DNA of 64,000 nt. Origin: a virus. Made by a program: the position numbers and the translations under genes. The notes under the pieces were generated by a model. It saw only the letters and a list, made by a program, of their open reading frames with translations. It ran no database searches and was not told the origin of the DNA. Numbering within the stretch: position 1 is the first letter of the stretch; the number at the start of each line of letters is the position of its first letter. Shown here piece by piece: positions 28,294 to 61,976 of this stretch. The stretch is from the IMG/VR virus record IMGVR_UViG_3300034122_002094, one strand, 5' to 3'.

Positions 28294-28689
28294 ATGGAGA
28301 CCAAGGTGTGTGAAGTTGAGATCGGTCGCGAGAAGTATGAAGCCTTGTTGGAGGCGTTCAAGACGCCTGCAACAGAATGGCCGAACCACGACTATCTCTC
28401 ACAGTATGATGAGGGCGACATCGTCTGGGATGTCACGGCGACGTTCGATGACGGTTTTGATCTTGATCTGTTCGTGCGTGCGCCCTGTGACTTCGAGGAT
28501 GAAGATCCTGATGAGGTTGCGTGGGGTGAGCTCGTGCTCTGGTCGCCAGGCATGAACGGGGGCGAGATGATCGAGTTGGATTCTGATCAGATCGACGACT
28601 TCAAGGAGCAGGCATACCTGTTCCAGTATGGCGACGTCGTTTACCAGATGACCTTGCGGGTCGTGAATGACCTGCCCGAGGAGGACTGA
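28294..28689 (+). CDS. hypothetical acidic protein
   Basis: GGAGG RBS. Confidence 0.8.
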   Translation: METKVCEVEIGREKYEALLEAFKTPATEWPNHDYLSQYDEGDIVWDVTATFDDGFDLDLFVRAPCDFEDEDPDEVAWGELVLWSPGMNGGEMIELDSDQIDDFKEQAYLFQYGDVVYQMTLRVVNDLPEED

Positions 28690-28690
28690 G

Positions 28691-29509
28691 ATGCAGCTCA
28701 ACATTACCGACAAGCCGCTCAAGGGCAAAGAGATCTGGCTCTGGAGCGATCCGCATCTGTGGCATGGCGCCGATGACGGTAGTACCGGCATCATCAAGAT
28801 GGGCAAGAGGCCATTCTCAAGCCTCGCGCACATGCAGCAGTCGATGATCGAGAACATGCTGGAGCACATGCCAGACAATGCCATCATCATCTGCAATGGC
28901 GACCTGTGCATGGGCAAGAACGACAAGCTCACAGAGTTCTTGTCGAAGTGCCCCTTCCAGATCATCTGTGTTCGTGGCAACCACGATCCAGACCTCCGCG
29001 TCCTGACCATCATGAAGCCTGATGGGACGCTTGAGCATCGCGACCAGACCTACTACCTCAACAAGCCTCTGCTCTTCCCTGACAACTGGAAGGTCTGGTA
29101 TGTTGACAAGCTGTGTCTGCGTGGCCTTGTCTACCAGTCAAGGTCTGGCATGACTGTGAGCCGCATCAACTTTGACCACTATCCAGCCGAGGAGTGGCAC
29201 GGATGTGAGAAGAGTGGCATCCTGTTCCACGGTCATGTTCATCACAACGATCCGGCTGATCGGATGCAGGGACGGTTCAACATCTGCGCTGATGTGGTCG
29301 CAGCCCGACACCGTGATGCCCTGACCGCTCTCGGCGCCGACCTGGCCGATCCTGTCTACCAGTACATGCAGCAGCGCTGCTATGCGCCCTATCCCATCGA
29401 CTACTTCATCACCGCGCTGGAGCTTGACCGTGAGAGCGTGGCGCGGCGTCCGAGTGACCGCTGGCCAAACGGTGGAGTGATCTTCGGTGAGCGAGAAGAC
29501 GAGTCGTAA
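28691..29509 (+). CDS. calcineurin-like metallophosphoesterase
   Basis: SDPHLWH, NGD, GNHD, HYP, HGHVH. Confidence 0.9.
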   Translation: MQLNITDKPLKGKEIWLWSDPHLWHGADDGSTGIIKMGKRPFSSLAHMQQSMIENMLEHMPDNAIIICNGDLCMGKNDKLTEFLSKCPFQIICVRGNHDPDLRVLTIMKPDGTLEHRDQTYYLNKPLLFPDNWKVWYVDKLCLRGLVYQSRSGMTVSRINFDHYPAEEWHGCEKSGILFHGHVHHNDPADRMQGRFNICADVVAARHRDALTALGADLADPVYQYMQQRCYAPYPIDYFITALELDRESVARRPSDRWPNGGVIFGEREDES

Positions 29510-41115: not shown

Positions 41116-41355
41116 ATGAAAGATCATCACACTGAGAAGACTCAAGGATACGCGATCGTCTACAAGAAGACGCCCTGGGTCAATGTCGGCTGGTTCAATC
41201 TATACGAAACAAAAGCTCAGGCTCAAGCTGAACTTGAGAGACAGGCCAAGACAGAACGACACACAGGCCGCAACGAGCAGAAGTGGCGCGATGCCGTCAT
41301 GATCGTCAGGGTCACAAGAACAGTCACAGCACACGTTGAAGAGGAATCCGATTGA
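41116..41355 (+). CDS. hypothetical protein
   Basis: AGGA RBS. Confidence 0.7.
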   Translation: MKDHHTEKTQGYAIVYKKTPWVNVGWFNLYETKAQAQAELERQAKTERHTGRNEQKWRDAVMIVRVTRTVTAHVEEESD

Positions 41356-42527
41356 GCACAACGACAAAGTCAGATGTCATCCGCGCCCTACTGGGCAACC
41401 TTGAGAGCTTCTTGAACGAGATCAGCTATGAGCGGTCTCGCGAGATCGAGCTCATCATCGCTGTCATCGTGGCACGACAGCACATGTTCATGCTGGGACC
41501 ACCGGGTGTCGCCAAGTCCTACATCCTTGAGGAGCTGTCTCGCTGCGTCGAAGGCCGCTGCTTCAAGAAGCTGTTCTCGGCGATGACCGAGCTCTCAGAG
41601 GTCCTCGGTCCGATCGACCTCAAGGCTTTCGAGCAGGAAAACGAGCTGCGCTTCAACTACAAGGACATGCTCCCTGATGCGCACTTCTTCCTCGCTGACG
41701 AGGTCTTCAAGGCCAACTCCGTGCTGCTGAACGCGCTGCTGGAGCTGCTGAACGAGCGCCGCTTCACCAACGGCAGCCAGCGCGTCAACACAGCCCTTGT
41801 CTCTGCCTTCGGCGCCTCGAATGAGCTCCCACAGGAGGGCCTTGAGGCCTTCTATGACCGCTTCCTCGTTCGCACCCAGGTGCTACCCATCCAGGACCCG
41901 CTGATGTTTGCCGAGTATGCTCGGGGCGGGCATATCGCAGCCAAGCGGCGGTGGGAGAACGGGGAGGATGGTCGCACCATGCCGAAGCTCACGCTCAAGA
42001 TGCTGGAGTATGCGGCTGAAGAAGCATCGAAGGTCCTGGTGACTCCCGAGTTTGCCAACCACCTCTCCAAGCTGCGCCAGACGTTCAACCTCAAGCACGG
42101 CGACGTCCAGATCTCTGACCGTCGCTGGGGTCAGGCCGTCCAATTTGCCAAGGCAAGCGCATGGATTGCCGGACGTGAGAAGCTCGTGCGTAACGACCTC
42201 TTCTACCTGCGCGACTGCCTGTGGGATGAGCCTTCGCAGCGTGGGCCGATCCAGAACACAATCGCTCAGGCTTGCGACCACTCGCTGGCCGACTTCCAGA
42301 CAACGCTCAATGACATCAGAGCTGCCATCGCCACAGCTCGTCAGGCCTCTCGATACGCTGATGCCATGAAGCATCAGACTGCAATCAATGAGCTTGACAA
42401 GATCATGCTGGCGATGCTAGAGAACGACCCGTCGCTCGGACTGTACTGCCGAGCTGCAATGCAGCAGCTCCAGTCAGATCGCAGACAGCTCAAAGAGCAT
42501 ATCGAGACACTCGTCCAGAGGAAGTAA
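41352..42527 (+). CDS. MoxR-family (RavA-like) AAA+ ATPase
   Basis: Walker A GPPGVAKS, Walker B FLADEVFKAN, GASNELP, AFYDRF, ISDRRW. Confidence 0.9.
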   Translation: MSTTTKSDVIRALLGNLESFLNEISYERSREIELIIAVIVARQHMFMLGPPGVAKSYILEELSRCVEGRCFKKLFSAMTELSEVLGPIDLKAFEQENELRFNYKDMLPDAHFFLADEVFKANSVLLNALLELLNERRFTNGSQRVNTALVSAFGASNELPQEGLEAFYDRFLVRTQVLPIQDPLMFAEYARGGHIAAKRRWENGEDGRTMPKLTLKMLEYAAEEASKVLVTPEFANHLSKLRQTFNLKHGDVQISDRRWGQAVQFAKASAWIAGREKLVRNDLFYLRDCLWDEPSQRGPIQNTIAQACDHSLADFQTTLNDIRAAIATARQASRYADAMKHQTAINELDKIMLAMLENDPSLGLYCRAAMQQLQSDRRQLKEHIETLVQRK

Positions 42528-42528
42528 C

Positions 42529-42921
42529 ATGGCAGACATGAGCGCCGAGGCACTCGGCATCTACAACAAGCTCTCTCGCTTGCTGGTCGCTGCGGCGGTC
42601 CGCACTGGATATACAACAGAGGCGGATCTCTACTTCTCGATCGACGAGGCCAGCCAAAACAAGAAGGCGTCCAGTGGCGCCAGCGTGATCCTTGTCGTGG
42701 ATGTCCGCAAGGTCGGCGCTCAGCGCTTCTTCAAGGTACTGGAGTCGCTGCTCGACGAAGATCTCGTGCTCGACTATCGCATCGAGTACCAGGCTTATGC
42801 CAAGAGCCCGTTCGTCGGCGGCCTCTCGTTTGATCCCATCCGCGCTGCCGTCGAGTCTGAGCGCCGCACATACGCACTCTTCACCGAGCGCCAAGATAAG
42901 GAGGCTCCCGATGCTGATTAA
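42529..42921 (+). CDS. hypothetical protein
   Basis: GAGGA RBS. Confidence 0.75.
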   Translation: MADMSAEALGIYNKLSRLLVAAAVRTGYTTEADLYFSIDEASQNKKASSGASVILVVDVRKVGAQRFFKVLESLLDEDLVLDYRIEYQAYAKSPFVGGLSFDPIRAAVESERRTYALFTERQDKEAPDAD

Positions 42922-43315
42922 AAGCCTGAACACATGGCAGTTCAAAGCCCTGAACATCTCGCTGCTCGTCATGGCTTTCATCACACATGTGATGGGTGTG
43001 CCAGAGATCTCTCGGCTGTTTGTCCTCAGCTTCGCGCTGACCAACGCCTTCGAGATCGGCGTGCAAGCTGGTAGTGTCAAAGCCAGCGGTGCATTGAATG
43101 CCTCAGAGATCAATAAAATCCATCGACATGTGATAAAGATCCATGTCGTCGGCCTCCTGGGCATTGCTTCGCTGGTCGTGACGCTCGTCATTGCTGCTCA
43201 CATGACGGCGAATACGCCGTACCAGAACTTCTGGGACTTTGTCTTCAGCGGAGTATGCGTCGCTCACTACTGCTTGTTTGGCATCTATGCCATTCAGAGA
43301 GAGGAGCTCAATTGA
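42911..43315 (+). CDS. multi-pass membrane protein
   Basis: About four hydrophobic segments; TAAGGAGG RBS. Confidence 0.75.
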   Translation: MLIKSLNTWQFKALNISLLVMAFITHVMGVPEISRLFVLSFALTNAFEIGVQAGSVKASGALNASEINKIHRHVIKIHVVGLLGIASLVVTLVIAAHMTANTPYQNFWDFVFSGVCVAHYCLFGIYAIQREELN

Positions 43316-43893
43316 CTCAGTCAAAGTTGACGGTGATCGAGGGCGGCACAGATTGTACCCGGCTGCTCTACTACAACTGCCCTGTTCGTCATCCATCGCT
43401 CAAGGTCGAGATCGTCACAGATGAGCGCCACCAGCTTCTCTGTGAGATGATCTGGGCCTCTGGGCTGTTCGACGTCGAAGCGCTGGTTGGCCTGAAGATC
43501 ATGCCAGGTCCGTTCGAGCCGTCTGTCAGCAACGGGACAAGATCTCCCTGGAAGGTTGTCAGCCATCTCAAGTCTGACATCGTCTGGGGACCCACAGGCA
43601 ACCCAGCAGCCGCAGTCGGTGAACGGCAGAACTATGATGGTCGTGCTGGCCTGACTTACTCGGCTGAGCTGGCCGCACAGCCTGTCGTTGTTGCGCTGGA
43701 AGGCCAGGAAACAGGCTATGCCTGCATCAACGTACTCGCCAATGAGAAATATGTTGGCAGGCTGGTTTATAGCTGGGACAACCTGGCTGATCCGCCTGTA
43801 AGCTTTGGTCTCAAGGCGCTCAAGACCGGTCTGCAAGAGTACAACGACAACGCCCTCAAACAGCGCCAAGCCTTCTTGCTGGAGAATCCATGA
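43312..43893 (+). CDS. hypothetical protein, paralog of 43890
   Basis: KLTVIEGGT..LLYY..HPS..RHQLLCEM..RSPW..YSW.NL.DPP. Confidence 0.85.
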   Translation: MTQSKLTVIEGGTDCTRLLYYNCPVRHPSLKVEIVTDERHQLLCEMIWASGLFDVEALVGLKIMPGPFEPSVSNGTRSPWKVVSHLKSDIVWGPTGNPAAAVGERQNYDGRAGLTYSAELAAQPVVVALEGQETGYACINVLANEKYVGRLVYSWDNLADPPVSFGLKALKTGLQEYNDNALKQRQAFLLENP

Positions 43894-44519
43894 AAGAAAA
43901 ATTAACCGTCATCGAAGGTGGGACAGAAGACCCCCTGCTGCTCTACTACAAACATGTCGTCATTCATCCATCGCCCTCCTACCAGATCATGTCTGATGAT
44001 CGTCATCAGCTCCTCTGCGAGATGGTGATCCAGAAAGGGATCTTCGAGATCGAGGCGATGGTCGGCAAAATGATGGACCCCAGCAAGCCATTCAAGCCCT
44101 GGGTTTGCAATGGCTTACGCAGTCCCTGGCGCCTCGTATGTCACAAAGTCGAGGAGGCTGGCGTCGACAACATCATCATCGCCAGGCCTCCAGCCCAGAT
44201 TGGTGATACCACTGTCCTGATCAGCATGGGCGGCATCACTGTCAAAGCTCGCATGGGCACCTCATGCGTCGCGATGCTTGTTGGCGTTGGCCAGATCTGT
44301 GGCGCCGCCATCGAAGTGTTGGTGAACGAGGATGTAGTGGGTGAGATCCATTACAGTTGGAACAACCTTGTAGATCCGCCCTTCGAGAAAGGCGATCTCA
44401 TGGTAAGTAACGATGCCGCTCTTTACAATGCCTCGATCATCAAAGAGAGGTCCGACTTGATCGCTGCTGAGCGCTCCAAAATGAGACTTCCTTACAAGCA
44501 GTCCAAGAGACCCCTATGA
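43890..44519 (+). CDS. hypothetical protein, paralog of 43312
   Basis: Shared motifs; ATGA coupling. Confidence 0.85.
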   Translation: MKEKLTVIEGGTEDPLLLYYKHVVIHPSPSYQIMSDDRHQLLCEMVIQKGIFEIEAMVGKMMDPSKPFKPWVCNGLRSPWRLVCHKVEEAGVDNIIIARPPAQIGDTTVLISMGGITVKARMGTSCVAMLVGVGQICGAAIEVLVNEDVVGEIHYSWNNLVDPPFEKGDLMVSNDAALYNASIIKERSDLIAAERSKMRLPYKQSKRPL

Positions 44520-45802
44520 ATGAATGGATGGCTGAGATGGACAGGGATGTGTTTCTGCACTACGGCGCGAAGCACCTCTTTGTCGACGAATACAAAAAAG
44601 CTGAGCCTGCTATCCAAGAGCAAATCGTGGATCTGTACGGCTCTCTCTATCGTGGCAGGTCTCACGAGCTGATCGATGCAGCCAGGCATTCCAGCCACTA
44701 CTTCGACACCCACGTCGAGCTCAGTCGCGGAGATCCTTTCCACTCACTCTACATGAGTTATCTCGTCCACAAGTACGTCGATGAGCCCTATCAGGAGGCC
44801 AAAAAGAAAGGCTGCAAAGGCAATGAGCTTGGCGACTTGATGTCTGGCCTGATCAACGAGAAGGTCAAGCCAGAGCTCGATGCAGCGCTTGAGGCTCATG
44901 CAGATCTCATGGACCTGCTTCAGTCTGAGAGAGGCGATCAGCCTGGCAACAGGGTCGATCAGATCACCGGCCAGACCCTGGAGGATCTCCAGCGGATCGT
45001 GGGTCTGTGCAGCGAGCCCAACTTTGCCGCTGTCATGAAGCTCATGGGCCGCTTCTTTCGCAGCTACTCTGCCATGTTCAAGACGCAGGTGTTCCCGAGC
45101 AACACGGTGCCGGTCGATGTCAAGTTCGGCAGGCAGATCTCTCATGTGTTGTCAAGTGAGCTCCTGGCGCTGGCCAATCCCTCTCTGCGCCGCCTGTTCC
45201 GTCTGAAGTTCGTCACTGGACGCCTGCTCCAATTCGACAAGGAGCACAAGGAGGGTAGCAATCGTGGACCGCTGTACCTGGCGCTTGACATCTCTGGCTC
45301 GATGAGCGCTGAGCTCAAACTTGATCAAGGCCTTCACGTCCATCGCTACCAGCTCGCCGCAGCGCTCATCCTCGTGCTCATGCGCATCTGCTACAAAGAG
45401 AAGCGTGAGTTTGAGATGTTCCTGTTTGGCAGCTCGACAAGGCACCTCTTCTCGTCGAAGGACTACCCGAGGTTGATCGATGCGATGGAGAAGCTCGTGA
45501 AGAGCTGCAAAGGCACAGATGGAACAGACATCAAAAGGTGCTTCAAATCACTGGTAGATTTCAAAGCCAGGGCTGGAGATACCATTCAGCCCGACTTTGT
45601 CATCATCTCTGACCTCGAAGACCAGTGTCCCATGACGACAGTTCAAGAGATCAATAATATGATCGGCGAAACTCGTTGCCATGCGCTCATCGTTCATGAT
45701 AGTCTTGATAGTGAGTGGAACAAGGTCTTTACGACCGTCACCGCTACCACCAACCCCGCCAACATGACCCAGTTCCTGGTCGACTCCACAAGGAAAAGAT
45801 AA
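44516..45802 (+). CDS. vWA-domain protein (ViaA-like)
   Basis: MIDAS DISGSM, GTD, ISD; G..ISHVLSSEL upstream motif. Confidence 0.85.
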   Translation: MNEWMAEMDRDVFLHYGAKHLFVDEYKKAEPAIQEQIVDLYGSLYRGRSHELIDAARHSSHYFDTHVELSRGDPFHSLYMSYLVHKYVDEPYQEAKKKGCKGNELGDLMSGLINEKVKPELDAALEAHADLMDLLQSERGDQPGNRVDQITGQTLEDLQRIVGLCSEPNFAAVMKLMGRFFRSYSAMFKTQVFPSNTVPVDVKFGRQISHVLSSELLALANPSLRRLFRLKFVTGRLLQFDKEHKEGSNRGPLYLALDISGSMSAELKLDQGLHVHRYQLAAALILVLMRICYKEKREFEMFLFGSSTRHLFSSKDYPRLIDAMEKLVKSCKGTDGTDIKRCFKSLVDFKARAGDTIQPDFVIISDLEDQCPMTTVQEINNMIGETRCHALIVHDSLDSEWNKVFTTVTATTNPANMTQFLVDSTRKR

Positions 45803-45803
45803 T

Positions 45804-47552
45804 ATGATCATCAGCATCGACATGTTCATGACTCAGCCCGATCTGGATCGTCACGATCTGAAGGACGCCTCCGAGATCGGCTATGTGCTCCAGAAGAACC
45901 CTGCCAACACCCATACCAAGGATCTCTCGTTTGGCAAAGCCCACCTGATGTTCGACATGGTGACAAAGCCTGATTTCATTCAGGACTTTCGCTGCGCCGA
46001 CTACATCGAGCCTGGAGATCATCTGGGGCTCATGAGCTTCACGCTCATCCCTGTCATCGACGAGAACAAGATCGTGCGTGGTTCGGGCAGCTACAAGACT
46101 CACCCTCTGGAGGCGTTCGTCAACGACACCGCGTTCACATTCGGCACGCACACAGCCACAGCGCTGGTCAAGATGTTCTCGAAGACCATGAACCGTGGTG
46201 TCGAGCATCCTCTGGCCGATGCGATCTTCAACTTCGTGGTTGACATCAGCAACGTCGTCATCGAAGACGAGAGCGACGTTCGTTATCTGAGGAGTCTGTT
46301 CAACCATATGGGCGCGCTGGCTGTCAAAGATCCCGAGGGCGATCACGGCATCCATTACTCCTACCTCCACTTTCAGTCTGACGATCATGTCCATCGGACG
46401 CTGTACAGCCAGCGCGACAAAGCCGTCATGTTCGCCAAGGGTTCGCTCCCAGCGCATGGCCTGACAAACATGGTGCTTGAGTATCGTGGCACCACTGCTG
46501 ATCTGCTCTCGTTCGTGTATCTGCTCGGGCACCTGCTCGACAGGAACAAGCACTACTACATGGGCGCCGATGAGATGGAGCGCTTCGATCGGTTCTGTCG
46601 CCCTGTGTTGTTCCCGAGTCAGGAGCGTCTGGACGCGGTCTTCGGTCACGAGGGCAAGCGCTTTGTGGCGGATGTCATCCGCGAGAGCTGTGACAGGTTC
46701 TTCGCAGGCAACAAGCAGCTCGCCAATGCAGCGTTCGACTCCTTCTCTGACTACCTGGCCGTCAAAGCCGATGCAGAAGAGGTCGAGGAGGCCCCAAAGA
46801 GCTCTTCTGAGACCACCGAAGAGCTCTCCCTTCATGAGCGTCGGCACAAGGCGATCCTGTCGCTCCTGGACCGTGTGAAGCTGCCTCAGCCATACACCAT
46901 CGTCGATGCTGGCTGCTCGACTGGTCAGCTCATGAAGAAGCTCGCGAAGTGGGGCGAGGATCAGCCCAAGCGTCCGAACCTGATCGGCATTGATCCAGGA
47001 ATGAAGAACGTCGGCATCGTCAAGCGCAAGCTCGCGCGCACCGGAGCGCCCGGCGCTGTCTATCAGAGCTCGATTCGCCACCGCGACTCCCGGCTGCGCG
47101 ATCTGTGTGACGTCATGATCTTATCGGAGGTCATCGAGCACCTGGATCTGTCCGACGTCAGCCAGGCCATCGAGGTCATCAAGTGGTATGCTCCCGAGGT
47201 GCTGATCGTGACGACGCCCAACAAGGCATACAACTCTGTGCTGCATGAGAAGTATGCTGCTCCAGGCACCCCCAAGCGCGAGTTCCGTCACTGGGACCAT
47301 CGTTGGGAGATGGAGTTTGATGGTGAGATGTCGCCTCAGAAGTTCTGCGACATGATGCTCGCCCGCAGCAAGGCTGAGCCCGATCTGCCGCCTCTGTTTG
47401 AGGGCGTTCGCTTCGGCATGGTCGGTGATCCTGTTGCGATCAACGACAAAGCCCAGGCCGCCTCGTTCCTGTTCGTGTTCTTCACTCACCGTGCTGCACC
47501 CATGTTCGCCGGTGAGTCTGCTATCCTGTCTCTCAACCCCACCTGGAAGTGA
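45804..47552 (+). CDS. hen1: 3'-terminal RNA ribose 2'-O-methyltransferase Hen1
   Basis: N-terminal ligase-activating motif ASEIGYVLQKNP..FGKAH; methyltransferase motifs VDAGCSTG, QSSIRHRD.RL, EVIEHL, TTPNKAYN, FRHWDHRWE. Confidence 0.92.
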   Translation: MIISIDMFMTQPDLDRHDLKDASEIGYVLQKNPANTHTKDLSFGKAHLMFDMVTKPDFIQDFRCADYIEPGDHLGLMSFTLIPVIDENKIVRGSGSYKTHPLEAFVNDTAFTFGTHTATALVKMFSKTMNRGVEHPLADAIFNFVVDISNVVIEDESDVRYLRSLFNHMGALAVKDPEGDHGIHYSYLHFQSDDHVHRTLYSQRDKAVMFAKGSLPAHGLTNMVLEYRGTTADLLSFVYLLGHLLDRNKHYYMGADEMERFDRFCRPVLFPSQERLDAVFGHEGKRFVADVIRESCDRFFAGNKQLANAAFDSFSDYLAVKADAEEVEEAPKSSSETTEELSLHERRHKAILSLLDRVKLPQPYTIVDAGCSTGQLMKKLAKWGEDQPKRPNLIGIDPGMKNVGIVKRKLARTGAPGAVYQSSIRHRDSRLRDLCDVMILSEVIEHLDLSDVSQAIEVIKWYAPEVLIVTTPNKAYNSVLHEKYAAPGTPKREFRHWDHRWEMEFDGEMSPQKFCDMMLARSKAEPDLPPLFEGVRFGMVGDPVAINDKAQAASFLFVFFTHRAAPMFAGESAILSLNPTWK

Positions 47553-48877
47553 CCAACATGCTCGACATCAAGAACCTGCTGACCCCGAATCGCTTCACCA
47601 CTCCGAGCCCCATCGCTGGGGCCGCCCCCCTCGAATACCGCCTCACCGCCGACCAGCTTGAGAGCGCGTTCGAGCAGTTGGAGACCTCTGTCTGCAAGGA
47701 GTGCAGCTTCATCGCTCCCACCATCTCCCCGCCCGACACCTCTGATGCGACCCATTCGATGGGCTACCTGGAACACCCCAGGGATGTCTTCGCCTACTAC
47801 CGCGCCAAGCGTGTCGACTTCCTGTTCGCTCAGGAGAAACTCATGGGTTCGAGAGCGACGATCCTGGCTGTGCGCGATGAGCCAGAGAAGAGCCAGATCT
47901 GGAGCCGCTCTGGCAGGCCCTTCTTCGACCGCCAGACGACGACCGAGATCATGAAGGACGTGCTGGCAGACCTTCGCTACATGATGCCTCACAACTACGC
48001 CACATGCCTCCTTGATACTGAGGCGATGCCGTGGAGCCTCAAGTCTGGCAAGCTCGGCAACAAGGTCTTCCGTCGCTCGGCGCTGTCCGCCAAGAACTAC
48101 TACGATCGGCTGGCGTATCGCCTCGGGACTCAGGCCAAGTTTGTGGCAGCTCCCGATGGTGATGTCAAGCCATGTCTGTTTGATCCGCAAGACATCAACC
48201 AGCGTGAGCACAACGCATCTCAGATGCTCCAGCTCATCGACTGGTATCTGCCAGACAATCAGTCTGCTCTCAAGGACGCACAGTTCAACGTGTTAGACAT
48301 CCTCGCGATCTCGCTTGAGGGTGAAGGCGCTCCGGCAGACCACTACGAGGTGCAGCAGCCCGCCTTTAGCGTGCAGTTCATCATCAACCAGATGTCGATG
48401 CACAAGATGCGGCGTCTGGTGCCCGTCAAGACCCATCTGGTCGACCTCAATGACGAGGAGAGCTGTGAATATGTCACTGACAAGTGGCTTGCCTACACAG
48501 GCTGTGGTGGAGAAGGCTTTGTCTTCAAGACGCGAGAGTACAGGACCGACCCTGCGACCAAGCAGTTCATCATCCCGGCGATGAAGTGCCGTGGTCGTGA
48601 GTACATGCGCCTGACCTATGGTGTGAACTACACCGAGCCTGAAAGCTTCAAGCTGTTCAAGGGCCGCTCGACCGCCAGGAAGCGCATGTTGTCGGCTGTC
48701 GAGTATCAGCTTGCCCTCGGTGGTCTGCTGGCCCGCCAGCGCCTCTCTGACATCCAGTTCGAGGAGTGGTCAAGCGGCAACGAGCGAGAGCTTGAGTCTT
48801 TGGAGGACACGATGTACCTCTCGAAGCTCCATGTGCTCGCGTGTGAGCAAGACAAGAAGATCGACATCAGACTGTGA
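47549..48877 (+). CDS. stand-alone Pnkp-type RNA ligase (adenylyltransferase) domain
   Basis: APTISP, LEHP, motif I QEKLMGSR, SRSGRPFF, LDTEAMPWS, EGFVFK, KCRGREY, terminal DIRL; no kinase or phosphatase domain. Confidence 0.9.
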   Translation: MTNMLDIKNLLTPNRFTTPSPIAGAAPLEYRLTADQLESAFEQLETSVCKECSFIAPTISPPDTSDATHSMGYLEHPRDVFAYYRAKRVDFLFAQEKLMGSRATILAVRDEPEKSQIWSRSGRPFFDRQTTTEIMKDVLADLRYMMPHNYATCLLDTEAMPWSLKSGKLGNKVFRRSALSAKNYYDRLAYRLGTQAKFVAAPDGDVKPCLFDPQDINQREHNASQMLQLIDWYLPDNQSALKDAQFNVLDILAISLEGEGAPADHYEVQQPAFSVQFIINQMSMHKMRRLVPVKTHLVDLNDEESCEYVTDKWLAYTGCGGEGFVFKTREYRTDPATKQFIIPAMKCRGREYMRLTYGVNYTEPESFKLFKGRSTARKRMLSAVEYQLALGGLLARQRLSDIQFEEWSSGNERELESLEDTMYLSKLHVLACEQDKKIDIRL

Positions 48878-55085: not shown

Positions 55086-55391
55086 GTGAAGATTGTAGAC
55101 AACAACAAAGGAAGCGGGCAGGATAGCCTGGTGCTCAACGTCTCCTCCCAGATCGCAAGCCAGGTTCAGAAGACGCCTGGTATCGAGGCCGTCGAGCTCA
55201 AGAAGCTCTGCTCATCGTACATGATGACGCTGCCTGTCGAGAGCACGATGATCAAGGACATGATCTGGGCGCAGGCCATCAGCCATGCCACTGTCAACCG
55301 CCAGATCATCCTGTCCGATGACTGTCGCTATTACCCGGCCAACCCTGCTCCGGGTGAGATCCACGTCTTCATCAAGAACGGAGTGTGCTGA
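55086..55391 (+). CDS. hypothetical protein
   Basis: GGAG RBS; GTG start. Confidence 0.65.
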   Translation: MKIVDNNKGSGQDSLVLNVSSQIASQVQKTPGIEAVELKKLCSSYMMTLPVESTMIKDMIWAQAISHATVNRQIILSDDCRYYPANPAPGEIHVFIKNGVC

Positions 55392-56527
55392 TGCGCTACC
55401 ATTTCGTCGTGTGCTTTCACTGGGGTGAGATCAACCCTCTCCAAGCCAATCCATTGTGGTATTGCTACGATGAAGCTCGGACTCAGATGAAGAAGGACCT
55501 GGCTGACAACAATGTGGCCTGGGATGCGACAGAAGAGTGGCTGTGGCTGAGCCTGGACTCAATGCGTCAGAATGCTGAGCGGTCAGGTCTGTATGTGCCA
55601 ACCGACAACGAGTTCAGTCATCGCTACTCGTTCAGCGCAACGCCTGACATGATCTCTGGAGCCTTTGAGGCCGTGGAATACGGCAACTCCTCAGATGCTC
55701 GCGTGATCATGCTGGCTCGCTACAACACCTGGCCGTGGAACCACGCCAAGGGCTCCATGAGGGCGATCGCTGCGGCAATGGGCGCTGAGTCTTCGACCGT
55801 CGAGCAGATGATCACGTCGTTCAAGGAGACCTACTACGATGGAGGCTGGTACGACCAGCTCGTCAAGGCAGGTATCCCGACACCAGTGACGTACATCTGG
55901 CGTGATGGGCCTGCTCTGATGAACCTGTCGGCCAACTTCCAAGATGCCTGTCTCTTCTTCGAGCAGAATCGCGACTCCTGGAGCACCAACCCAGACGGCA
56001 TCCACGATCCACACTACTTCCTCAAGACCTATAAGGCTCTGAACGGCAAGTGGATGGGCGGCAAGCTCCCATACAAGGACCTGTATGAAGGCGTGATGGA
56101 GGCTCTTCGCTGGATCGATCGTGATGAGACCCTGATGATCCGGGAGTTCGTGCCCATCATGACCACCGGTGCAGCGCTCGGGCTCACCCCGCTCGATGCT
56201 GACTACATCGAGGATCCCGTTGAGTGGCGCTACATCTTCCACAACGGCAATCTGATCGCCAAGGGTCCCAATCGCAACTACCTGCCCGCAGACATTCTGC
56301 GGCGGCTCAATGAACGTACAGACGAGTTCCTGGCGCTGGCTGTCAAGGCCAATAGCGCGCTCGCCACTGACTGGAACTGCCTCGACATCGCGCTGACTGC
56401 AACAGGCATCCCGTTCGTCGTCGAGGTCAACGCTGGCATCTCCAGTGGCCTTCCGTGGAACTCTGCTCCGAACTACTACGAGAACCTGTTCGCTTCCATC
56501 ATCAAGAGAGAGGATAGCAAGCTATGA
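55391..56527 (+). CDS. ATP-grasp domain protein (R2K-like)
   Basis: FLK, LMIREFV, EWRYIFHNG, DIA...G..VVEVN.G.SSG. Confidence 0.75.
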   Translation: MRYHFVVCFHWGEINPLQANPLWYCYDEARTQMKKDLADNNVAWDATEEWLWLSLDSMRQNAERSGLYVPTDNEFSHRYSFSATPDMISGAFEAVEYGNSSDARVIMLARYNTWPWNHAKGSMRAIAAAMGAESSTVEQMITSFKETYYDGGWYDQLVKAGIPTPVTYIWRDGPALMNLSANFQDACLFFEQNRDSWSTNPDGIHDPHYFLKTYKALNGKWMGGKLPYKDLYEGVMEALRWIDRDETLMIREFVPIMTTGAALGLTPLDADYIEDPVEWRYIFHNGNLIAKGPNRNYLPADILRRLNERTDEFLALAVKANSALATDWNCLDIALTATGIPFVVEVNAGISSGLPWNSAPNYYENLFASIIKREDSKL

Positions 56528-58410
56528 CGCAGTATAACATCCCCAGCATGATCAAGACGGCCTCCGGCCTCCGAGTCGACCCCCTCAATCCTCGCAAGGA
56601 GAACGTCAAGCTCAACGACGTGCTCGCTGCGCTCGGGCGACAGATCCGCTACAACGGCCATGTGGACTACTCTGTGCGTGACCACACGCTCGTCATGTAC
56701 AAGATCTTCAAGACGTTGTACCGCGAGCCCGTCGAGTACATCCAGCAGATCCCGAAGGATGGCCAGCTCGGCCAGATCAGCACAGCCCAGGTCCTGCGTG
56801 ATCTCATGGGCATCCTGATCCTCACACACGACATGCCCGAGGCATACATCGGCGACATGGTCCAGCCGCTCAAGCAGAACATGCCCGAGTTCAAGAAGGT
56901 GGACGACCGAATCCTGCCGATCGTGATGGAAGCCATCATCCAGAACGTGATCAGCTCTATCTTCGTCAACGACGGGATGGCCGATCGGTTCACCGATATG
57001 ATGCGCGATGGCGATGCCGAGACCTGGGCGGGCGTCATCATGCGTCTGTATAGAGGTGAGGGCGCTGTCGACTTCACAAACTATCTCACTCACACCCTCA
57101 CGCTGCTCGATCGCAACATCTGCGACCATCTGGAGATGCCGTGCCTGCATGGCAACGTCGATCGCTTCGCCCAGTGTCTGATCATGGGCGGGATGGAAGA
57201 GCGTATCGCCTACGAGCGGATCCTGTACTACCAGATCGAGAACTTCGCTCAGTCAACCAAGGCGACGCTCATCGACAAGATCGCCACGGCTGGCCCGACA
57301 CAGATGCTCGACTTCGTGGCAGCTCGCCTCTCCAAGCCTGGTCGCTCCGGCCTCGCCAAGATCTCTCAGGAAAACCAGTTCCTGCACGACTTCGCCATGT
57401 TCGACAGTGAGCTGACGGAGCACGTCTTCTCGTTGCTCGATGCGATCCGGATCGCTCGCAGCTTCGATCCGTCGCTGCCCGGCTATGTGCCCGAGACCCC
57501 CAAGGAGCGTGTGATGGTCGCATCTATGGGCCTGGACATGACCTTCAAGACCCCTGGCGAGCTGGTCGAACAGGGAGTCGCCGAGCTCGACGCCAAGATC
57601 GCAGAGGGTCTGAAGACACCTTTGAGGCCGTGGTCTGAAGCCCATCCTGAGCTCCTCGCAAAGCTGGCTGCGTGGCAGGAAGAGCAGGCCCGCGAAGAAG
57701 CAGAGCTCGGTCTGGATCTTATCCCAGAGCCAGGCCTGCGCAGTGTCATGCGTGAGCTGAAGATTCCGGCCTGGTCAATCCTGAAGCAGTTTGAGAGCGC
57801 TCGCGCAGATCAGGCTTCGGCAACCACGAGCCAGGATGTTCTGGCCACCAATGCCACCGCAGCCGTCACGGCTCCGTTCTCGATCGACTTCGATGTCATC
57901 TTCGAGATGAAGGGTGGTCAGTGGGTTGGCCCGAAGAACCCCTGGGGCAACAACCCTGACGAGAAGGTGCTGCTGGATCCGGATGGCTCAGGAGAGCATC
58001 GCCCTGATGGCCTCGCTATCGGTCAGTATATCTACCATAAGCTCGACGAGGACATCAAGTTCCCGATGAAGTGGGAGGTCGTTGATGTCGGGGTGGAGAC
58101 CAGATCTGCATCTGTCTCTCTGAGTATGCTCGTGCGGGCCTCGACCAACAGTGATCGTGAGCACAAGACGGTCGCTGAGCGTGTCGCAAAGACATTCATC
58201 TATCTGCGAGAGCTGCTGCTCCAGATGGCTGAGCAGTCCCAGTTGACGGGCTCCATCTACATCGCTGTTCGCAAGACCAAGCCTCAACTCAAGCGTGGCG
58301 ATGCAATCGTGAAGCCCGAGAGCTATCAGGTCGGCTTCATGGCTGGGAATATCACCAGCCAGTGCCCGCAGCCCCCGTTCATCTTCCTCAAGACCCAGAA
58401 CTGGAAGTAA
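56524..58410 (+). CDS. HD-domain nucleotide hydrolase (YfbR-like) with long unknown C-terminal extension
   Basis: RYNGH..YSV.DH, THDMPEAYIGDM.QPLK. Confidence 0.8.
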   Translation: MTQYNIPSMIKTASGLRVDPLNPRKENVKLNDVLAALGRQIRYNGHVDYSVRDHTLVMYKIFKTLYREPVEYIQQIPKDGQLGQISTAQVLRDLMGILILTHDMPEAYIGDMVQPLKQNMPEFKKVDDRILPIVMEAIIQNVISSIFVNDGMADRFTDMMRDGDAETWAGVIMRLYRGEGAVDFTNYLTHTLTLLDRNICDHLEMPCLHGNVDRFAQCLIMGGMEERIAYERILYYQIENFAQSTKATLIDKIATAGPTQMLDFVAARLSKPGRSGLAKISQENQFLHDFAMFDSELTEHVFSLLDAIRIARSFDPSLPGYVPETPKERVMVASMGLDMTFKTPGELVEQGVAELDAKIAEGLKTPLRPWSEAHPELLAKLAAWQEEQAREEAELGLDLIPEPGLRSVMRELKIPAWSILKQFESARADQASATTSQDVLATNATAAVTAPFSIDFDVIFEMKGGQWVGPKNPWGNNPDEKVLLDPDGSGEHRPDGLAIGQYIYHKLDEDIKFPMKWEVVDVGVETRSASVSLSMLVRASTNSDREHKTVAERVAKTFIYLRELLLQMAEQSQLTGSIYIAVRKTKPQLKRGDAIVKPESYQVGFMAGNITSQCPQPPFIFLKTQNWK

Positions 58411-58419
58411 GGAGTTATC

Positions 58420-59172
58420 ATGACGAAAGCGCTCAATGCTCGTGAGCGCTTCGATCTGGACCTCGCCGACTGGCGCAAGTCCTTTTCGGAGCACAAGATC
58501 CTCATCTGCGATCCTGACGGCTACCGTGTCCGCTTCGGTGTTCCTTATAACGAAAAGCTCGGCATCGCTGGTGGCTGTTCGTCGAACCACTACTATGAGT
58601 TCTCGCTGCTCATCGGCGGGAGTCATGTGGTCTTCGTTGGCGATGGAGAGCCTGCTGTGTTCTCCAGCTTCTGTGGTGTGCCCAACGCCATGAAGAAGGA
58701 GCTGCCCGAGTGGCCCTTCGCCGAGGCGCTCAAGTGGGTCGCTCACTTTGCTGTGTCTCCCGACTACGGCGCAAGCAAGTTGGAGGTTGGTCTCAAGTCC
58801 AGCTCCTCGAATCCCTTCTCTGACTTTGAGGTCGCGCAGGAAGATGCTCTCAGGCATGTGCGCGAGGACTTCGAGCAAGAGTGGCCCGAGCTCACGGAAG
58901 AAGACAAAGAGTTTCTTGGCGCAAAAAATATCGAATGTGCCGAGAAAGAGCGCGCTGAGGCTCTGGAGAAGCTCGAAGAAGTCGAAGAGCTCATCAACGA
59001 ATCTGGTGACATGAATGAGCTCCGCGAGGTTCTGAGAGAATACGATCAGGACTCGTGGGACTGGAGCTGTGGATCTGTGATCCCCTCTGTGGTCGCGCGA
59101 TCTGCGGCAATGGCTGAGAAGATGCTGGAGCTACTGAAGGAGATCCCCTATGAAGCTGTGCGCAGTCGGTGA
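58420..59172 (+). CDS. hypothetical protein
   Basis: TAAGGAG RBS. Confidence 0.8.
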   Translation: MTKALNARERFDLDLADWRKSFSEHKILICDPDGYRVRFGVPYNEKLGIAGGCSSNHYYEFSLLIGGSHVVFVGDGEPAVFSSFCGVPNAMKKELPEWPFAEALKWVAHFAVSPDYGASKLEVGLKSSSSNPFSDFEVAQEDALRHVREDFEQEWPELTEEDKEFLGAKNIECAEKERAEALEKLEEVEELINESGDMNELREVLREYDQDSWDWSCGSVIPSVVARSAAMAEKMLELLKEIPYEAVRSR

Positions 59173-60166
59173 TGTACATGGAGACTTTGCAGGTCTCTAC
59201 GACCTGATCGAGAAGATCAGGTCTCGCAACGAGGGTATCGACACCTTCTGTGTCGTCGGAGACATGGGCATCTACCCTCGCAAGAAAGACTGGGTCTGGC
59301 GTCTCCAGGAGCTCAAAGAGATCACGGCCTGCTGGCCTGAGTCACGCTTCGAGTTCATTGATGGCAACCACGATGACCACATCGCTCTCAACACGCCTGG
59401 TTTCGTCGAGGAGCTGCTGGAGCAGACAGGCTGGCACTTCCGTCGTAGAGGCGAATACGACGCCTCTACGGGCGTGCTGTACATCGGTGGAGCCGATAGC
59501 GTGTGGTTCGACATGGCCAGCAGGCTGGTTGACATCTGCTCTGCGAACGAGCTCACCGCGCACGCGCTGCTCAGAGAGATCGATACCTGGCCAGGCAACG
59601 GCAGCATCAAGCTGGCGATGAAGCCCAGAACGACCTCATACGGCATTCAGGACTCACTGGACCTGCTCAATGCCGTCCGAGTCAAGAAGGGCCGTAACGA
59701 GATCCTCAACTGGATCCATAACGATCATTTCAAGCGCGGCGAAAAAACCTTCAAGATGCTGAGGCGTATGCTTCTGCAAGTAGAAGGAATCAAAGACTTT
59801 CGCCACTGGTCTATCGGTGAGCAGATCAGCCGAGAAGACATCGATCGAGCGCTGGCAGTGAATGGCCCAGTCAAGCTCGTCATCTCGCACACGGCGCCAC
59901 AGCAGATCGTGATGGATAAATTCACGTTGCAAAATCAGGTGGCTTCGGTGTATGAGCCTTCTCGGCACCTGCTCGCAGAGCTCTACGAGAAGGTCAAGCC
60001 GCAGAAGTGGGTCATGGGTCACTGGCACAAGTATGGCCGGATCGACGATGACACCACGCGGTTCACAGTGCTCGATACGATCAGCAATCAAATCAATCAA
60101 GCCGGTCGGCTGCTCCCAGAAGGTCTGAGGCAGTTTGGCCTGTACTTCGAGGTGTATGAGTTATGA
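59150..60166 (+). CDS. calcineurin-like metallophosphoesterase
   Basis: GDVHG, VGDMG, DGNHD, GGA.S, SHTAP, GHWH. Confidence 0.9.
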   Translation: MKLCAVGDVHGDFAGLYDLIEKIRSRNEGIDTFCVVGDMGIYPRKKDWVWRLQELKEITACWPESRFEFIDGNHDDHIALNTPGFVEELLEQTGWHFRRRGEYDASTGVLYIGGADSVWFDMASRLVDICSANELTAHALLREIDTWPGNGSIKLAMKPRTTSYGIQDSLDLLNAVRVKKGRNEILNWIHNDHFKRGEKTFKMLRRMLLQVEGIKDFRHWSIGEQISREDIDRALAVNGPVKLVISHTAPQQIVMDKFTLQNQVASVYEPSRHLLAELYEKVKPQKWVMGHWHKYGRIDDDTTRFTVLDTISNQINQAGRLLPEGLRQFGLYFEVYEL

Positions 60167-61197
60167 GCGATGAACGTCCTGGCATGAGAGTCCTGCTCCT
60201 CGTTGATGGTCCCGGTGGTGTCGGCAAGACGACCTTCTGCAAGCACCTCTACTCCAAGCTCAACGGCTTGTCAGATGAAAGAGGCCTCGGGGCTCTGGCG
60301 ACCTACTACCACTTCCCGACCGAAGGGATCCCGAAGACCTTCGATGCCATGCTGCACGATCAGGTCAAGAAGATGTCTGGCTTCGTGCAGACACACGGCG
60401 ATCGCGATCACTACTACGTCTGCGATCGATGGGCTGCGTCGACCATCGTGTACCAAGGCGTTCAGTCCAAGAAAGCCGATCCGGTCAAGATGGCACTGAA
60501 CGCCTATGAAGGCGTCTTCAGGCTGTTCGACAAGGTGATCATCATCTGCATGAATGGTTCTGATCTGGCCATCAGGAAGTCTCGTCACCTGCGCGTGATC
60601 GAAGATGTCCTCTCAAGCGCCGAGAAGACCGCCGACATCTCGCCGAACGATCTGTTCGTGAAGCTGCTCAGCCTCAGCGAGAAATCTCACATCCCGGAGG
60701 AGTATCGCAAGCTCACTTCGCGGCTGGTCACTGCGCTGGCTGAGAAGCACTGTGATCGAGCTGAGCCTGCTTTGTACGGCATGGCTCGGGTTGCGCTCGG
60801 CATTCAGCCAATCAATCTGGCGAGCAATGGGATCGTCGTCGCTGAGCTGAGCAGCATCACCCGACATTCCAAGAAGAGCGTTGTATCCTTCGCGAAGCCT
60901 GGCGGAGGGCACATCTTCATGGTGACATCCTTCCTGGAGAACCACAGCGATGTCGGCTCCATGATGGAGCTCCTTGCCGACGATGTCGTCACTATGGCGG
61001 CGCATCAAAAGCAATACAACAGCATGGTGATCAGCCGTGGCAATTTTGCGAACGAAGTCAAAGATCTCTTACCCGCTCAATTCAAGGTGGCGGACGAACC
61101 GCGCCAATCGGGGACTGTCAAAGCAGATGCGCCTGGAGTGGAATCTGCCGTCGATGGAGCTGTGGCACAAGGAGCTGATGATGCAATCCCGTTCTGA
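60163..61197 (+). CDS. P-loop kinase, thymidylate-kinase-like, with C-terminal extension
   Basis: DGPGGVGKTT, HFP, CDRWAASTIVYQG. Confidence 0.8.
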   Translation: MSDERPGMRVLLLVDGPGGVGKTTFCKHLYSKLNGLSDERGLGALATYYHFPTEGIPKTFDAMLHDQVKKMSGFVQTHGDRDHYYVCDRWAASTIVYQGVQSKKADPVKMALNAYEGVFRLFDKVIIICMNGSDLAIRKSRHLRVIEDVLSSAEKTADISPNDLFVKLLSLSEKSHIPEEYRKLTSRLVTALAEKHCDRAEPALYGMARVALGIQPINLASNGIVVAELSSITRHSKKSVVSFAKPGGGHIFMVTSFLENHSDVGSMMELLADDVVTMAAHQKQYNSMVISRGNFANEVKDLLPAQFKVADEPRQSGTVKADAPGVESAVDGAVAQGADDAIPF

Positions 61198-61975
61198 GAT
61201 CGATGCTCTCGCCGATCTGCGCAAGCAACATGTGCGTGCTCTCAAGAACAAGCTGCACCGCAGCCTCGTCGTGCGGCACAAGCAGGACATGACCTGGATC
61301 CACTGGCTCATCTTCTGGCCCTTCTGGGCCATCGTCGGGCTCTTCTCGCCCGATCGTTCCTATGCCTTCTGGAACCACTACATCACTGTCGTCGCCTTCT
61401 TCGGCACGGTCATCTATGTGCCTGACAAGTGGCTGCGCAAGCTGGTGGACCAGTGGCCCGATGATGACATTCGGAATGCAGACCACATGCCTGACTGGTG
61501 GTACACGACGCTGGTCCACGAGCAGTGTCACATCAGTCAGCGCAAAGACGATGGCGCGTTCAAGTTCATCTACCGATATGCGCTGTCGAAGCAGGAGCGC
61601 TTCAACTATGAGCTCGAAGCCTACCTCACTGACTTCTTCATCCACGGCGTCCTCGGGAGCGCCTCGCTCAATCACATCGGCTCTATCGCTGACAAGCTCA
61701 GCAAGCCGACCTACATGATGAAGCCATCTCATCTGCATCAGGATGAGTGGGAGACTGTCTGCTTCGACTTGGTTGCAAAAGCCAACGAATTTATCAGAAC
61801 AGACAAGAACTTACACGACTCCATGAAGACCCACGGAGAGGGCGTGGAAAATATCGTTGCGCCGGAATCAGTGCTACTGTATACAAGATCTGGCGAGGCG
61901 TCAGCTCACTGCCGTCTCCCCCAAAGACTTCGCAGCCACCTGCGGCTCGCGGTCGCCTTCGCCTACAAGGAGTAG
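61178..61975 (+). CDS. membrane-anchored HExxH zinc metallopeptidase-like protein
   Basis: TM helix; LVHEQCH..Q; ELEAY. Confidence 0.7.
   Translation: MMQSRSEIDALADLRKQHVRALKNKLHRSLVVRHKQDMTWIHWLIFWPFWAIVGLFSPDRSYAFWNHYITVVAFFGTVIYVPDKWLRKLVDQWPDDDIRNADHMPDWWYTTLVHEQCHISQRKDDGAFKFIYRYALSKQERFNYELEAYLTDFFIHGVLGSASLNHIGSIADKLSKPTYMMKPSHLHQDEWETVCFDLVAKANEFIRTDKNLHDSMKTHGEGVENIVAPESVLLYTRSGEASAHCRLPQRLRSHLRLAVAFAYKE
61857..61885 (+). promoter_or_regulatory. class P promoter inside a CDS, upstream of the macrodomain gene
   Basis: AAAATATCG-TTGCGC-17(CAGTG)-TATACA. Confidence 0.7.
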
Positions 61976-61976
61976 C

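Follow-up and report, generated by a model that had tools for sequence, protein, structure and literature searches.

A pair of adjacent genes, one encoding a homologue of Hen1 and the other a stand-alone relative of bacterial Pnkp's ligase domain, was analyzed in the IMG/VR virus record IMGVR_UViG_3300034122_002094. The analyzed stretch comprises 64,000 nucleotides and is called the window in the following, with position 1 being its first letter. Positions 45804-48877 are occupied by two open reading frames (ORFs) on the same strand, which were assigned as follows:

45804..47552, plus strand: Hen1 homologue of 582 amino acids (aa), a predicted RNA 3′-terminal ribose 2′-O-methyltransferase with an N-terminal ligase-activating domain (Pfam, TIGR04074, PDB, catalytic columns).
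45804..46808, plus strand: N-terminal domain of Hen1, approximately residues 1-335, expanded by insertions in comparison to its relatives and with a predicted ligase contact (Hen1_L, 4DQZ, KNP motif, complex model).
46809..47552, plus strand: S-adenosylmethionine (SAM)-dependent methyltransferase domain of Hen1, approximately residues 336-510, and C-terminal tail (3JWH/3JWG alignment, motifs).
47549..48877, plus strand: stand-alone Pnkp-type (Rnl4-like) ATP-dependent RNA ligase of 442 aa (GTG start at 47549) or 439 aa (ATG start at 47558) (PNKP_ligase, Clostridium thermocellum Pnkp, motifs, clade placement).

The complete record has a length of 176,695 bp and a G+C content of 56.5%, carries direct terminal repeats of 127 bp and is rated 100% complete by CheckV. 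It encodes a large terminase, homologues of DnaB and DnaC, a ribonucleotide reductase and SbcC. These features bear out the viral origin that had been assumed from the sequence, and the replicon carrying the pair is a complete phage genome and not a bacterial contig. The genome additionally contains 30 tRNA genes, 28 of them clustered and two located elsewhere. In the cluster (L020:6007-11594; approximately 132,000-137,600 of genome C1), tRNAs for 19 of the 20 amino acids are represented.

The Hen1 ORF matched the Pfam family Hen1_L (PF12623) with an E-value of 2.3e-16 (60.1 bits, cut-off 23), the match being divided into three separate stretches with insertions, and it also matched several Pfam families of SAM-dependent methyltransferases. 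The NCBIfam model bacter_Hen1 (TIGR04074) was matched with an E-value of 7.8e-45; since the score of 153 bits does not reach the equivalog cut-off of 340, the protein is regarded as a divergent relative and not as an equivalog. Residues 339-503 align with the solved methyltransferase domains of Hen1 from Anabaena and C. thermocellum (3JWH, 3JWG; E-value 3e-11), and residues 21-55 weakly match the N-domain of the C. thermocellum enzyme (4DQZ). The motifs VDAGCSTG (at 367), EVIEH (442-446), TPN (471-473) and RHWDHRWE (495-502) were located, and the metal-binding residues of Hen1 (ExxEH and the His of RHxDH) are present as well as TPN. In an alignment of 15 Hen1 sequences, G374, E442, E445, H446, P472, N473, R495, H499, and E502 are invariant, as are, within the KNP motif of the N-domain, K31 and P33; exceptions to invariance are T471 and the residues of VDAGCSTG apart from G374. 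The same protein carries several large insertions in the N-domain relative to its relatives. Judged by its motifs, the Hen1 of the window is divergent but catalytically complete.

For the second ORF, the only Pfam match is PNKP_ligase (PF16542), with an E-value of 4.1e-52 (178 bits, cut-off 28.2) over residues 52-393. The Pnkp model TIGR04075 (851 positions) is matched solely at positions 484-819, and neither by Pfam nor by this model was a kinase or a phosphoesterase domain found in the 442-aa protein. Its closest solved structure is the ligase domain of C. thermocellum Pnkp (3TY9/4DRF; E-value 1e-28). The motif I lysine K97 (codon 47837-47839) is kept within EKLMGSR, GGEGFVFK (320) and AMKCRGREY (344) are likewise retained, and conservation extends to motifs IV and V; two relatives with 54% and 37% identity (57% and 42% according to phmmer) also retain the motifs. 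The E-values of both families are far outside chance. The two hidden Markov model searches that the sequence-only reading had proposed (Hen1_L and PNKP_ligase) thus confirmed what it had recognized, namely a full Hen1 with methyltransferase motifs, corroborated by bacter_Hen1, the PDB alignment and the conserved catalytic columns, next to a protein that has the Pnkp ligase motifs and lacks the kinase and metallophosphoesterase domains.

The same reading had described the genes as coupled by a GTGA overlap. An initiation at GTG 47549 would indeed produce an overlap of 4 nucleotides (nt) with the Hen1 stop codon. However, ATG 47558, which is located 5 nt past this stop, has a GGAAG 8 nt upstream and corresponds to the start of the database copy P0001 (439 aa), appears to be the likelier start. 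Whichever start is used, the two genes are tightly coupled.

When the ligase was modelled in complex with residues 1-335 of Hen1, an ipSAE of 0.77 was obtained, the best of three controls giving 0.00. Of 80 solved complexes, 58 attain the mark applied to this score, as do 2 of 110 mismatched pairs. The runs agreed in at least 78% of the contacts, with a partner pLDDT of at least 68. As similar complexes have been solved (4DRF/4E6N, 4XRU), the model indicates likeness, possibly recall, rather than a proof for this particular copy. Together with the fusions found among its relatives, it would be compatible with a ligase activity that depends on the N-terminal domain of Hen1.

An exhaustive phmmer search with the ligase as query against 1.84 billion representative proteins gave 875 matches. 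After two close homologues, the top matches are proteins of 800-975 aa, in which Hen1 (N-domain and methyltransferase) makes up residues 1 to approximately 450 and the ligase forms the C-terminal part. The best 150 representatives of the 875, together with the matches of an additional search, were sorted by architecture with Hen1 and Pnkp-N queries; among the matches listed were approximately 80 Hen1-ligase fusions, 46 canonical Pnkp proteins and approximately 50 short proteins, many of them partial. The fused architecture was also recognized by Pfam at the IMG/VR loci L003/L006, L007, and L010 and by precomputed Pfam assignments (methyltransferase plus PNKP_ligase) in P0063 and P0044. In a FastTree phylogeny of 178 ligase domains with Shimodaira-Hasegawa-like support values, the ligase of the window pairs with P0003 (support 99) within a clade of 85 members (support 98), which consists of 70 fusions, 12 ligase-only proteins, two others and the query, the canonical Pnkp proteins being placed outside. 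P0003 is the closest full-length relative, and its gene starts 20 nt from a contig end. Ten top fusions that were looked up are all metagenomic, unnamed and absent from NCBI and UniRef. The surroundings of the fusion genes are phage-like, with genes for ThyX, an Rnl2-type ligase, a DNA ligase, SbcCD, homing endonucleases, and a baseplate protein.

Next to fusions, several two- and three-gene forms were found. At L061/L062, on phage-like contigs of 107 and 76 kb, Hen1 is followed by the ligase with a 4-nt overlap, as in the window, and no kinase is found within 8 kb. At L059/L060 the order is small kinase, Hen1, and ligase, and at L057/L058 it is Hen1, a kinase-metallophosphatase protein, and ligase, all three genes overlapping. 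A complete phage of 188 kb (G002) has the ligase only and no Hen1. Kinase and phosphatase genes are optional neighbours in this family. When the phage studied here was compared all-against-all with four further Hen1-ligase phages, hardly any common genes and no common kinase emerged. While a scan of IMG/VR with a single-protein query gave no match, an alignment-based scan returned nine loci. A scan of 185,579 species genomes with a clade-tuned pattern of eight rows found only two contigs of metagenome-assembled genomes (MAGs) from the candidate phyla radiation, one of them with a fusion.

The observation that is new here is that the nearest relatives of the ligase form a clade with at least 80 sequence clusters of Hen1-ligase fusions and several coupled two-gene forms on phage-like contigs. 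Since the closest relatives are phage fusions and coupled pairs, the pair is understood as one form of a phage family and not as a broken Pnkp; by this comparison of sequences, the arrangement in the window is one variant of a modular family of proposed RNA seal-and-mark enzymes, which occurs commonly in large-phage metagenomes. The metagenomic fusions (P0037, P0044, P0063; L003, L007, L010) resemble the pair in clade, in combining the two activities without healing domains and in their phage-like context, and differ in that a single polypeptide of 800-975 aa takes the place of two coupled genes. Of the 'split' module that had been proposed, the combination of Hen1 with a ligase-only Pnkp relative is real, whereas its nearest relatives are phage fusions and coupled pairs and not bacterial Pnkp. 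That the two proteins are repeatedly found fused provides strong comparative evidence that they act jointly.

Some members of the clade were observed in other settings. The fusion recovered from the candidate phyla radiation (L068:1504-4050; 848 aa) was found in a Candidatus Falkowbacteria MAG; its contig of 24 kb may be cellular or derive from a mis-binned phage. P0036, a ligase-only clade member of 415 aa, derives from a transcriptome of Rhizamoeba saxonica and could be due to contamination or to a virus, or be genuinely eukaryotic. In two IMG/VR phages, a gene with a NADAR domain directly follows the Hen1-ligase fusion (L003:9147-9635 and L017:4784-5392); in the phage of the window, a NADAR gene and a macrodomain are present elsewhere in the genome. 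The fusion at L007:5536-9577 is flanked by an Rnl2-type RNA ligase (PHA02142 OB domain) and a small NT5C-like (HAD) protein, so that this locus looks like a denser RNA-repair island.

Cultured phages were searched in 50,697 GenBank records. With blastn and tblastn, the ligase of the window gave no match, and Hen1 matched only a methyltransferase in phage XacN1. The negative result for the ligase is explained by divergence, since a nearer relative (P0176) used as query recovered five phages, namely XacN1, CM1, RAS14, RYC, and sm033, which are the only ones of these records with a Pnkp-type ligase-only gene. In the Xanthomonas jumbo phage XacN1, a module of three genes consists of ORF199 (a kinase of 164 aa), ORF198 (Hen1) and ORF197 (ligase) in this order. 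ORF197 (L064:4519-5733), annotated as 'metallophosphoesterase' and published as PNKP, is actually a ligase-only protein of 404 aa, which matches the ligase alignment in hhalign with 99.6% and is 47% identical to P0176. Stenotrophomonas phage RAS14 has the same succession of kinase, Hen1, and ligase, all annotated as 'hypothetical', and Stenotrophomonas phage CM1, the record of which carries no annotation, contains a match to the ligase. In the Vibrio phages RYC (L066:4610-6763) and vB_VpaM_sm033 (L067:4646-6826), a ligase-only gene is followed by a gene for a protein of 717-726 aa, which is annotated as 'polynucleotide kinase' and consists of Hen1 (residues 1-420) and a Pnk-type kinase. These phages share with the window a phage-borne Hen1 together with a ligase-only protein, and XacN1 and RAS14 also share the order of Hen1 and ligase. 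In contrast to the window, where no such gene is found near the pair, a small Pnk-type kinase is located just upstream (XacN1, RAS14) or is fused to Hen1 (RYC, sm033), and the sequences of this group are beyond the tblastn reach of the window ligase. The survey of viral genomes for hen1 with a ligase-only pnkp that had been suggested thus returned these five cultured phages in addition to many metagenomic loci, showing that the arrangement is not without precedent.

In line with this, XacN1 was already reported in 2018 to possess a PNKP (ORF197) and a Hen1-like methyltransferase (ORF198) (PMC5852040), and the Pnkp1-Rnl-Hen1 complex of Capnocytophaga was reconstituted in 2015 by Wang et al. (PMC4411300), with the ligase Rnl as a separate protein, a T4-like Pnkp1 and an unlinked hen1. 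A ligase-only Pnkp relative working with Hen1 was therefore already known. As both systems precede the one described here, claiming uniqueness for a 'split' system is too strong. The Capnocytophaga heterohexamer (4XRU/4XRP) resembles the pair in having a stand-alone ligase that acts with Hen1 and in obtaining the healing activities from another protein. It differs in that rnl forms an operon with the gene for Pnkp1 (kinase and HAD phosphatase) and hen1 lies far off, whereas hen1 and the ligase gene are coupled in the window, and in that a T4-like Pnkp1 is encoded, whereas the phage genome lacks AAA_33, the kinase family of Pnkp and T4 Pnk. Capnocytophaga Rnl was not among the PDB sequence matches of the window ligase at an E-value of 0.01 or better. 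With bacterial Pnkp/Hen1 the pair has in common the ligase family (3TY9/4DRF), the methyltransferase and metal motifs of Hen1, the N-terminal ligase-associating domain and the adjacency of the genes. Bacterial Pnkp, however, carries an N-terminal kinase and a central metallophosphatase, while the ligase of the window is a separate protein of 442 aa; the order of Hen1 before ligase, the 582-aa Hen1 with its insertions, the phage host and the branching of the ligase with phage fusions set the pair further apart. Phage T4 with its Pnkp and Rnl1 is comparable in the proposed role, i.e., the reversal by a phage of damage caused by the host anticodon nuclease PrrC (PMC7824862), but its ligase belongs to the Rnl1 family, it has its own kinase-phosphatase and the junction is not methylated. 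A survey of RNA repair in jumbo phages lists Rnl1, Rnl2 and RtcB, the Hen1 and Pnkp-type ligase family being unmentioned (PMC7824862). In the literature searched, no paper on the fusion family or on a counter-defence by phage Hen1 was found, and an earlier description may exist; in the searchable literature, the Hen1-ligase phage family has been noticed once, loosely.

The genome was then considered for enzymes that could heal RNA ends, i.e., process a 2′,3′-cyclic phosphate and a 5′-OH. When the full Pnkp model was run over the whole genome, the ligase alone was matched; AAA_33 had no match, and when three full-length viral Pnkp proteins were compared with all ORFs by phmmer at its maximum sensitivity, the ligase was again the sole match. 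The search for a Pnk kinase across the genome, as had been recommended, hence detected no kinase or phosphatase of the Pnkp type. Rnl1/Rnl2-type ligases (PF09414), RtcB and 2H phosphoesterases were not found in the whole genome either, so by family searches the ligase of the window is the sole recognizable RNA ligase of this phage. A classical Walker A motif is present in just five ORFs, two of which are DnaB and DnaC, and a pattern search of the ORFs for HAD motif I revealed nothing convincing. The 628-aa protein encoded at 56524 was considered as a HAD phosphatase and rejected, as it resembles HD-type deoxynucleoside monophosphate (dNMP) phosphatases. Three further window genes were examined as sources of end-healing:

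28667..29509, plus strand: calcineurin-like phosphoesterase of 280 aa (Pfam Metallophos, 5e-6; phrog_547, 7.9e-23), unlinked to the pair.
59150..60166, plus strand: calcineurin-like phosphoesterase of 338 aa (Pfam Metallophos, 1.1e-9; phrog_1649, 6e-21), in a nucleotide-metabolism-like cluster.
60163..61197, plus strand: P-loop kinase of 344 aa, dNMP/thymidylate-kinase-like (Thymidylate_kin, 2.7e-5, below the cut-off; phrog_761 'thymidylate kinase', 1.8e-12).

The two phosphoesterases, listed at 28691 and 59150 in the sequence-only reading, had been put forward as healing enzymes acting in trans. This suggestion found no specific support: both belong to common phage families, they are unlinked to the pair, and none of the three metallophosphoesterases of the genome is similar to the Pnkp phosphatase. 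The sole hint concerns the enzyme at 28667, a homologue of which adjoins a ligase fragment in L011, with further homologues recurring in G002 and G003. At L011:3349-4730, an ORF of 185 aa that corresponds to only the C-terminal third of the ligase precedes this homologue, and the space upstream is too small for the missing N-terminal part. The P-loop protein at 60163 is unlikely to be an RNA 5′-kinase and resembles viral dNMP/thymidylate kinases; besides the matches given above, its atlas neighbours are viral thymidylate/dNK-like clusters, which agrees with the earlier impression of a dTMP kinase. PDB sequence searches with this protein (344 aa) and with the one at 59150 (338 aa) gave no informative match.

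Outside the window, just past the ribonucleotide reductase gene of the same genome, lies a cassette of coupled genes (L016:7771-11103). Its products are a protein of 295 aa without family match, a P-loop protein of 206 aa (C1:8655-9275), a metallophosphoesterase of 447 aa (C1:9239-10582), and a SLOG/YAcAr-like protein. The genes for the P-loop protein and the metallophosphoesterase overlap, and the cassette is kept in a related contig of 52 kb (L063). For a model of the P-loop protein (pLDDT 66, built from five sequences), the top six Foldseek matches are C. thermocellum polynucleotide kinase (E-value 6.5e-5, TM-scores 0.48/0.56), and an invariant Asp after strand 2 is placed where polynucleotide kinases have their catalytic Asp. 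A comparison with VIA-align gave Z-scores of 9.2-9.8 as a tie among PSTK, Trl1 kinase, Pnkp1, and PFK-2, with adenylate and gluconate kinases at 8.4-8.6. These models suggest the coupled P-loop and metallophosphoesterase genes (C1:8655-10582) as the best, albeit weak, healing candidate in the genome.

Taken together, we consider it probable, though well short of certain, that the pair constitutes a two-subunit RNA seal-and-mark enzyme which most likely rescues tRNAs cut by host anticodon nucleases, healing being supplied separately where needed. In the characterized bacterial system, it is Hen1 that activates the ligase of Pnkp, and the methyl group is added before the ends are sealed (PMC4411300). 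By analogy, the ligase of the phage would be bound and switched on by the N-terminal domain of Hen1, the methyltransferase of which would add a 2′-O-methyl group to the 3′-terminal ribose of the broken RNA. Via K97-AMP, the ligase would subsequently join the methylated 3′-OH end to a 5′-phosphate end, and the sealed junction would then resist renewed cleavage by transesterifying ribonucleases. The rescued tRNAs might be those of the host as well as the phage's own set of approximately 30, cut by host anticodon nucleases during infection, and ends bearing a 2′,3′-cyclic phosphate and a 5′-OH would be healed by separate proteins where needed.

Several observations weigh against this interpretation. 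As searches of the complete genome detected neither a kinase nor a phosphatase resembling those of Pnkp, substrates with 2′,3′-cyclic phosphate and 5′-OH ends would be beyond the pair alone. The possible replacement in the cassette lies approximately 35 kb away from the pair; the model of its kinase candidate is middling, derives from five sequences and nearly ties in structural score with P-loop kinases that are unrelated, and when the profile of this candidate is compared with those of phage Pnk-type kinases, the agreement is weak (hhalign probability 19-42%). The fold matches of the 447-aa phosphoesterase are generic (LpxH, PolD DP1, GpdQ, Rv0805, SbcD), the Pnkp phosphatase being outside the matches listed. 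Moreover, Hen1 is far under the NCBIfam equivalog cut-off and its N-domain has large insertions, not even in bacteria have the natural substrates or the biological role of Pnkp/Hen1 been identified (PMC4411300), and several other fusion-bearing phages also have no AAA_33 kinase, which would equally fit a role that is independent of healing.

In such a role, which we regard as possible but rather unlikely, the pair would seal nicks with 5′-phosphate and 3′-OH ends produced by metal-dependent nucleases (Toprim nucleases such as OLD and AriB of PARIS; PIN toxins), and methylation would hinder re-recognition. The absence of a Pnkp-type kinase from a complete genome speaks for it, as do the missing AAA_33 matches in the fusion-bearing G001, G003, G004, and G005 and in the complete ligase-only phage G002, and the occurrence of Hen1 and ligase at L061/L062 without a kinase nearby. 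Furthermore, Toprim defence tRNases leave directly sealable 5′-phosphate/3′-OH ends; P2-OLD does so on tRNA, and a single such nick was resealed by T4 ligases without healing (PMC12445682). Some defence nucleases may accordingly not require any healing (PMC12445682), and the end-healing in trans that the sequence-only reading had inferred may not be needed in every case. However, a 2′-O-methyl group chemically blocks only those nucleases that use the 2′-OH as nucleophile, and the ends left by these do need healing. In addition, a kinase is located beside the pair in XacN1, RAS14, L059, and L057 and is fused to Hen1 in RYC and sm033; this retention by many relatives implies that members of the family often operate together with healing. 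The records in which a kinase was sought are also mostly incomplete (CheckV 17-87%).

It is improbable, though conceivable, that the pair serves the RNA biology of the phage itself, i.e., the maturation, joining, circularization or 3′-end protection of phage tRNAs or tRNA-like RNAs. The 28 clustered and two further tRNA genes of this phage would fit such a function, as would the fact that eukaryotic HEN1 protects the 3′ ends of small RNAs. Against it stand the presence of the same module in unrelated phages of very different gene content and the architecture of Hen1 N-domain plus ligase, which is that of characterized repair complexes. Very unlikely, finally, is a decaying, functionless remnant of a captured bacterial Pnkp/Hen1 operon: the low score of Hen1, the disrupted-looking Hen1_L match in three stretches and the missing healing domains could be read in this way, but both reading frames are intact, every catalytic residue checked is conserved, the relatives at 54% and 37% identity keep the motifs, and the membership of the ligase in a large clade whose architecture likewise lacks healing argues for selection. 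Both genes of the window look functional.

Provided that the pair acts as proposed in the interpretation favoured here, the widespread modular Hen1-ligase core of phages would place 'repair and immunise' in a defined conflict, that between phages and host defences cutting tRNAs. This conflict is genetically testable because five cultured phages (XacN1, CM1, RAS14, RYC, sm033) hold relatives, in which the annotations 'metallophosphoesterase', 'hypothetical protein' and 'polynucleotide kinase' can now be corrected. More speculative, and in our view unlikely, is that large phages possess a distinct, undescribed and self-contained seal-and-mark family that directly reseals 5′-phosphate/3′-OH tRNA nicks of Toprim or PIN nucleases and protects the junction from re-cleavage by 2′-O-methylation. 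If true, it would represent a new anti-defence class and the first natural setting to identify the in vivo substrates of Hen1 repair. A Hen1-activated ligase that leaves a 2′-O-methyl group at the junction might also be a possible tool enzyme.

Upstream of the pair, the following genes were found in the window:

41352-42527, plus strand: MoxR-type AAA+ ATPase (Pfam bpMoxR, 9.9e-47).
43255-43893 and 43890-44519, plus strand: two ORFs without family match.
44516-45802, plus strand: vWA-like protein (VWA_CoxE, weak, 4.9e-4), ending 1 nt before the Hen1 start.

The genes of 41352..45802 (plus strand) form, together with Hen1 and the ligase, one tightly packed gene train that ends in the Hen1-ligase pair. 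Among the Hen1-ligase loci examined elsewhere, none showed this MoxR/vWA neighbourhood. Several enzyme genes stand in a row at 55385-62465 and encode an R2K ATP-grasp protein (380 aa), the 628-aa HD-type dNMP-phosphatase-like protein, which has a long C-terminal extension, a metallophosphoesterase, the 344-aa dNMP-kinase-like P-loop protein, and a macrodomain. They appear to serve nucleotide metabolism, DNA modification or signal degradation rather than RNA healing. The ribonucleotide reductase of the phage (L016:4535-7747; 1070 aa) is apparently intein-bearing, and its counterpart in L063 has LAGLIDADG and ribonucleotide reductase Pfam matches on a single product of 1010 aa.

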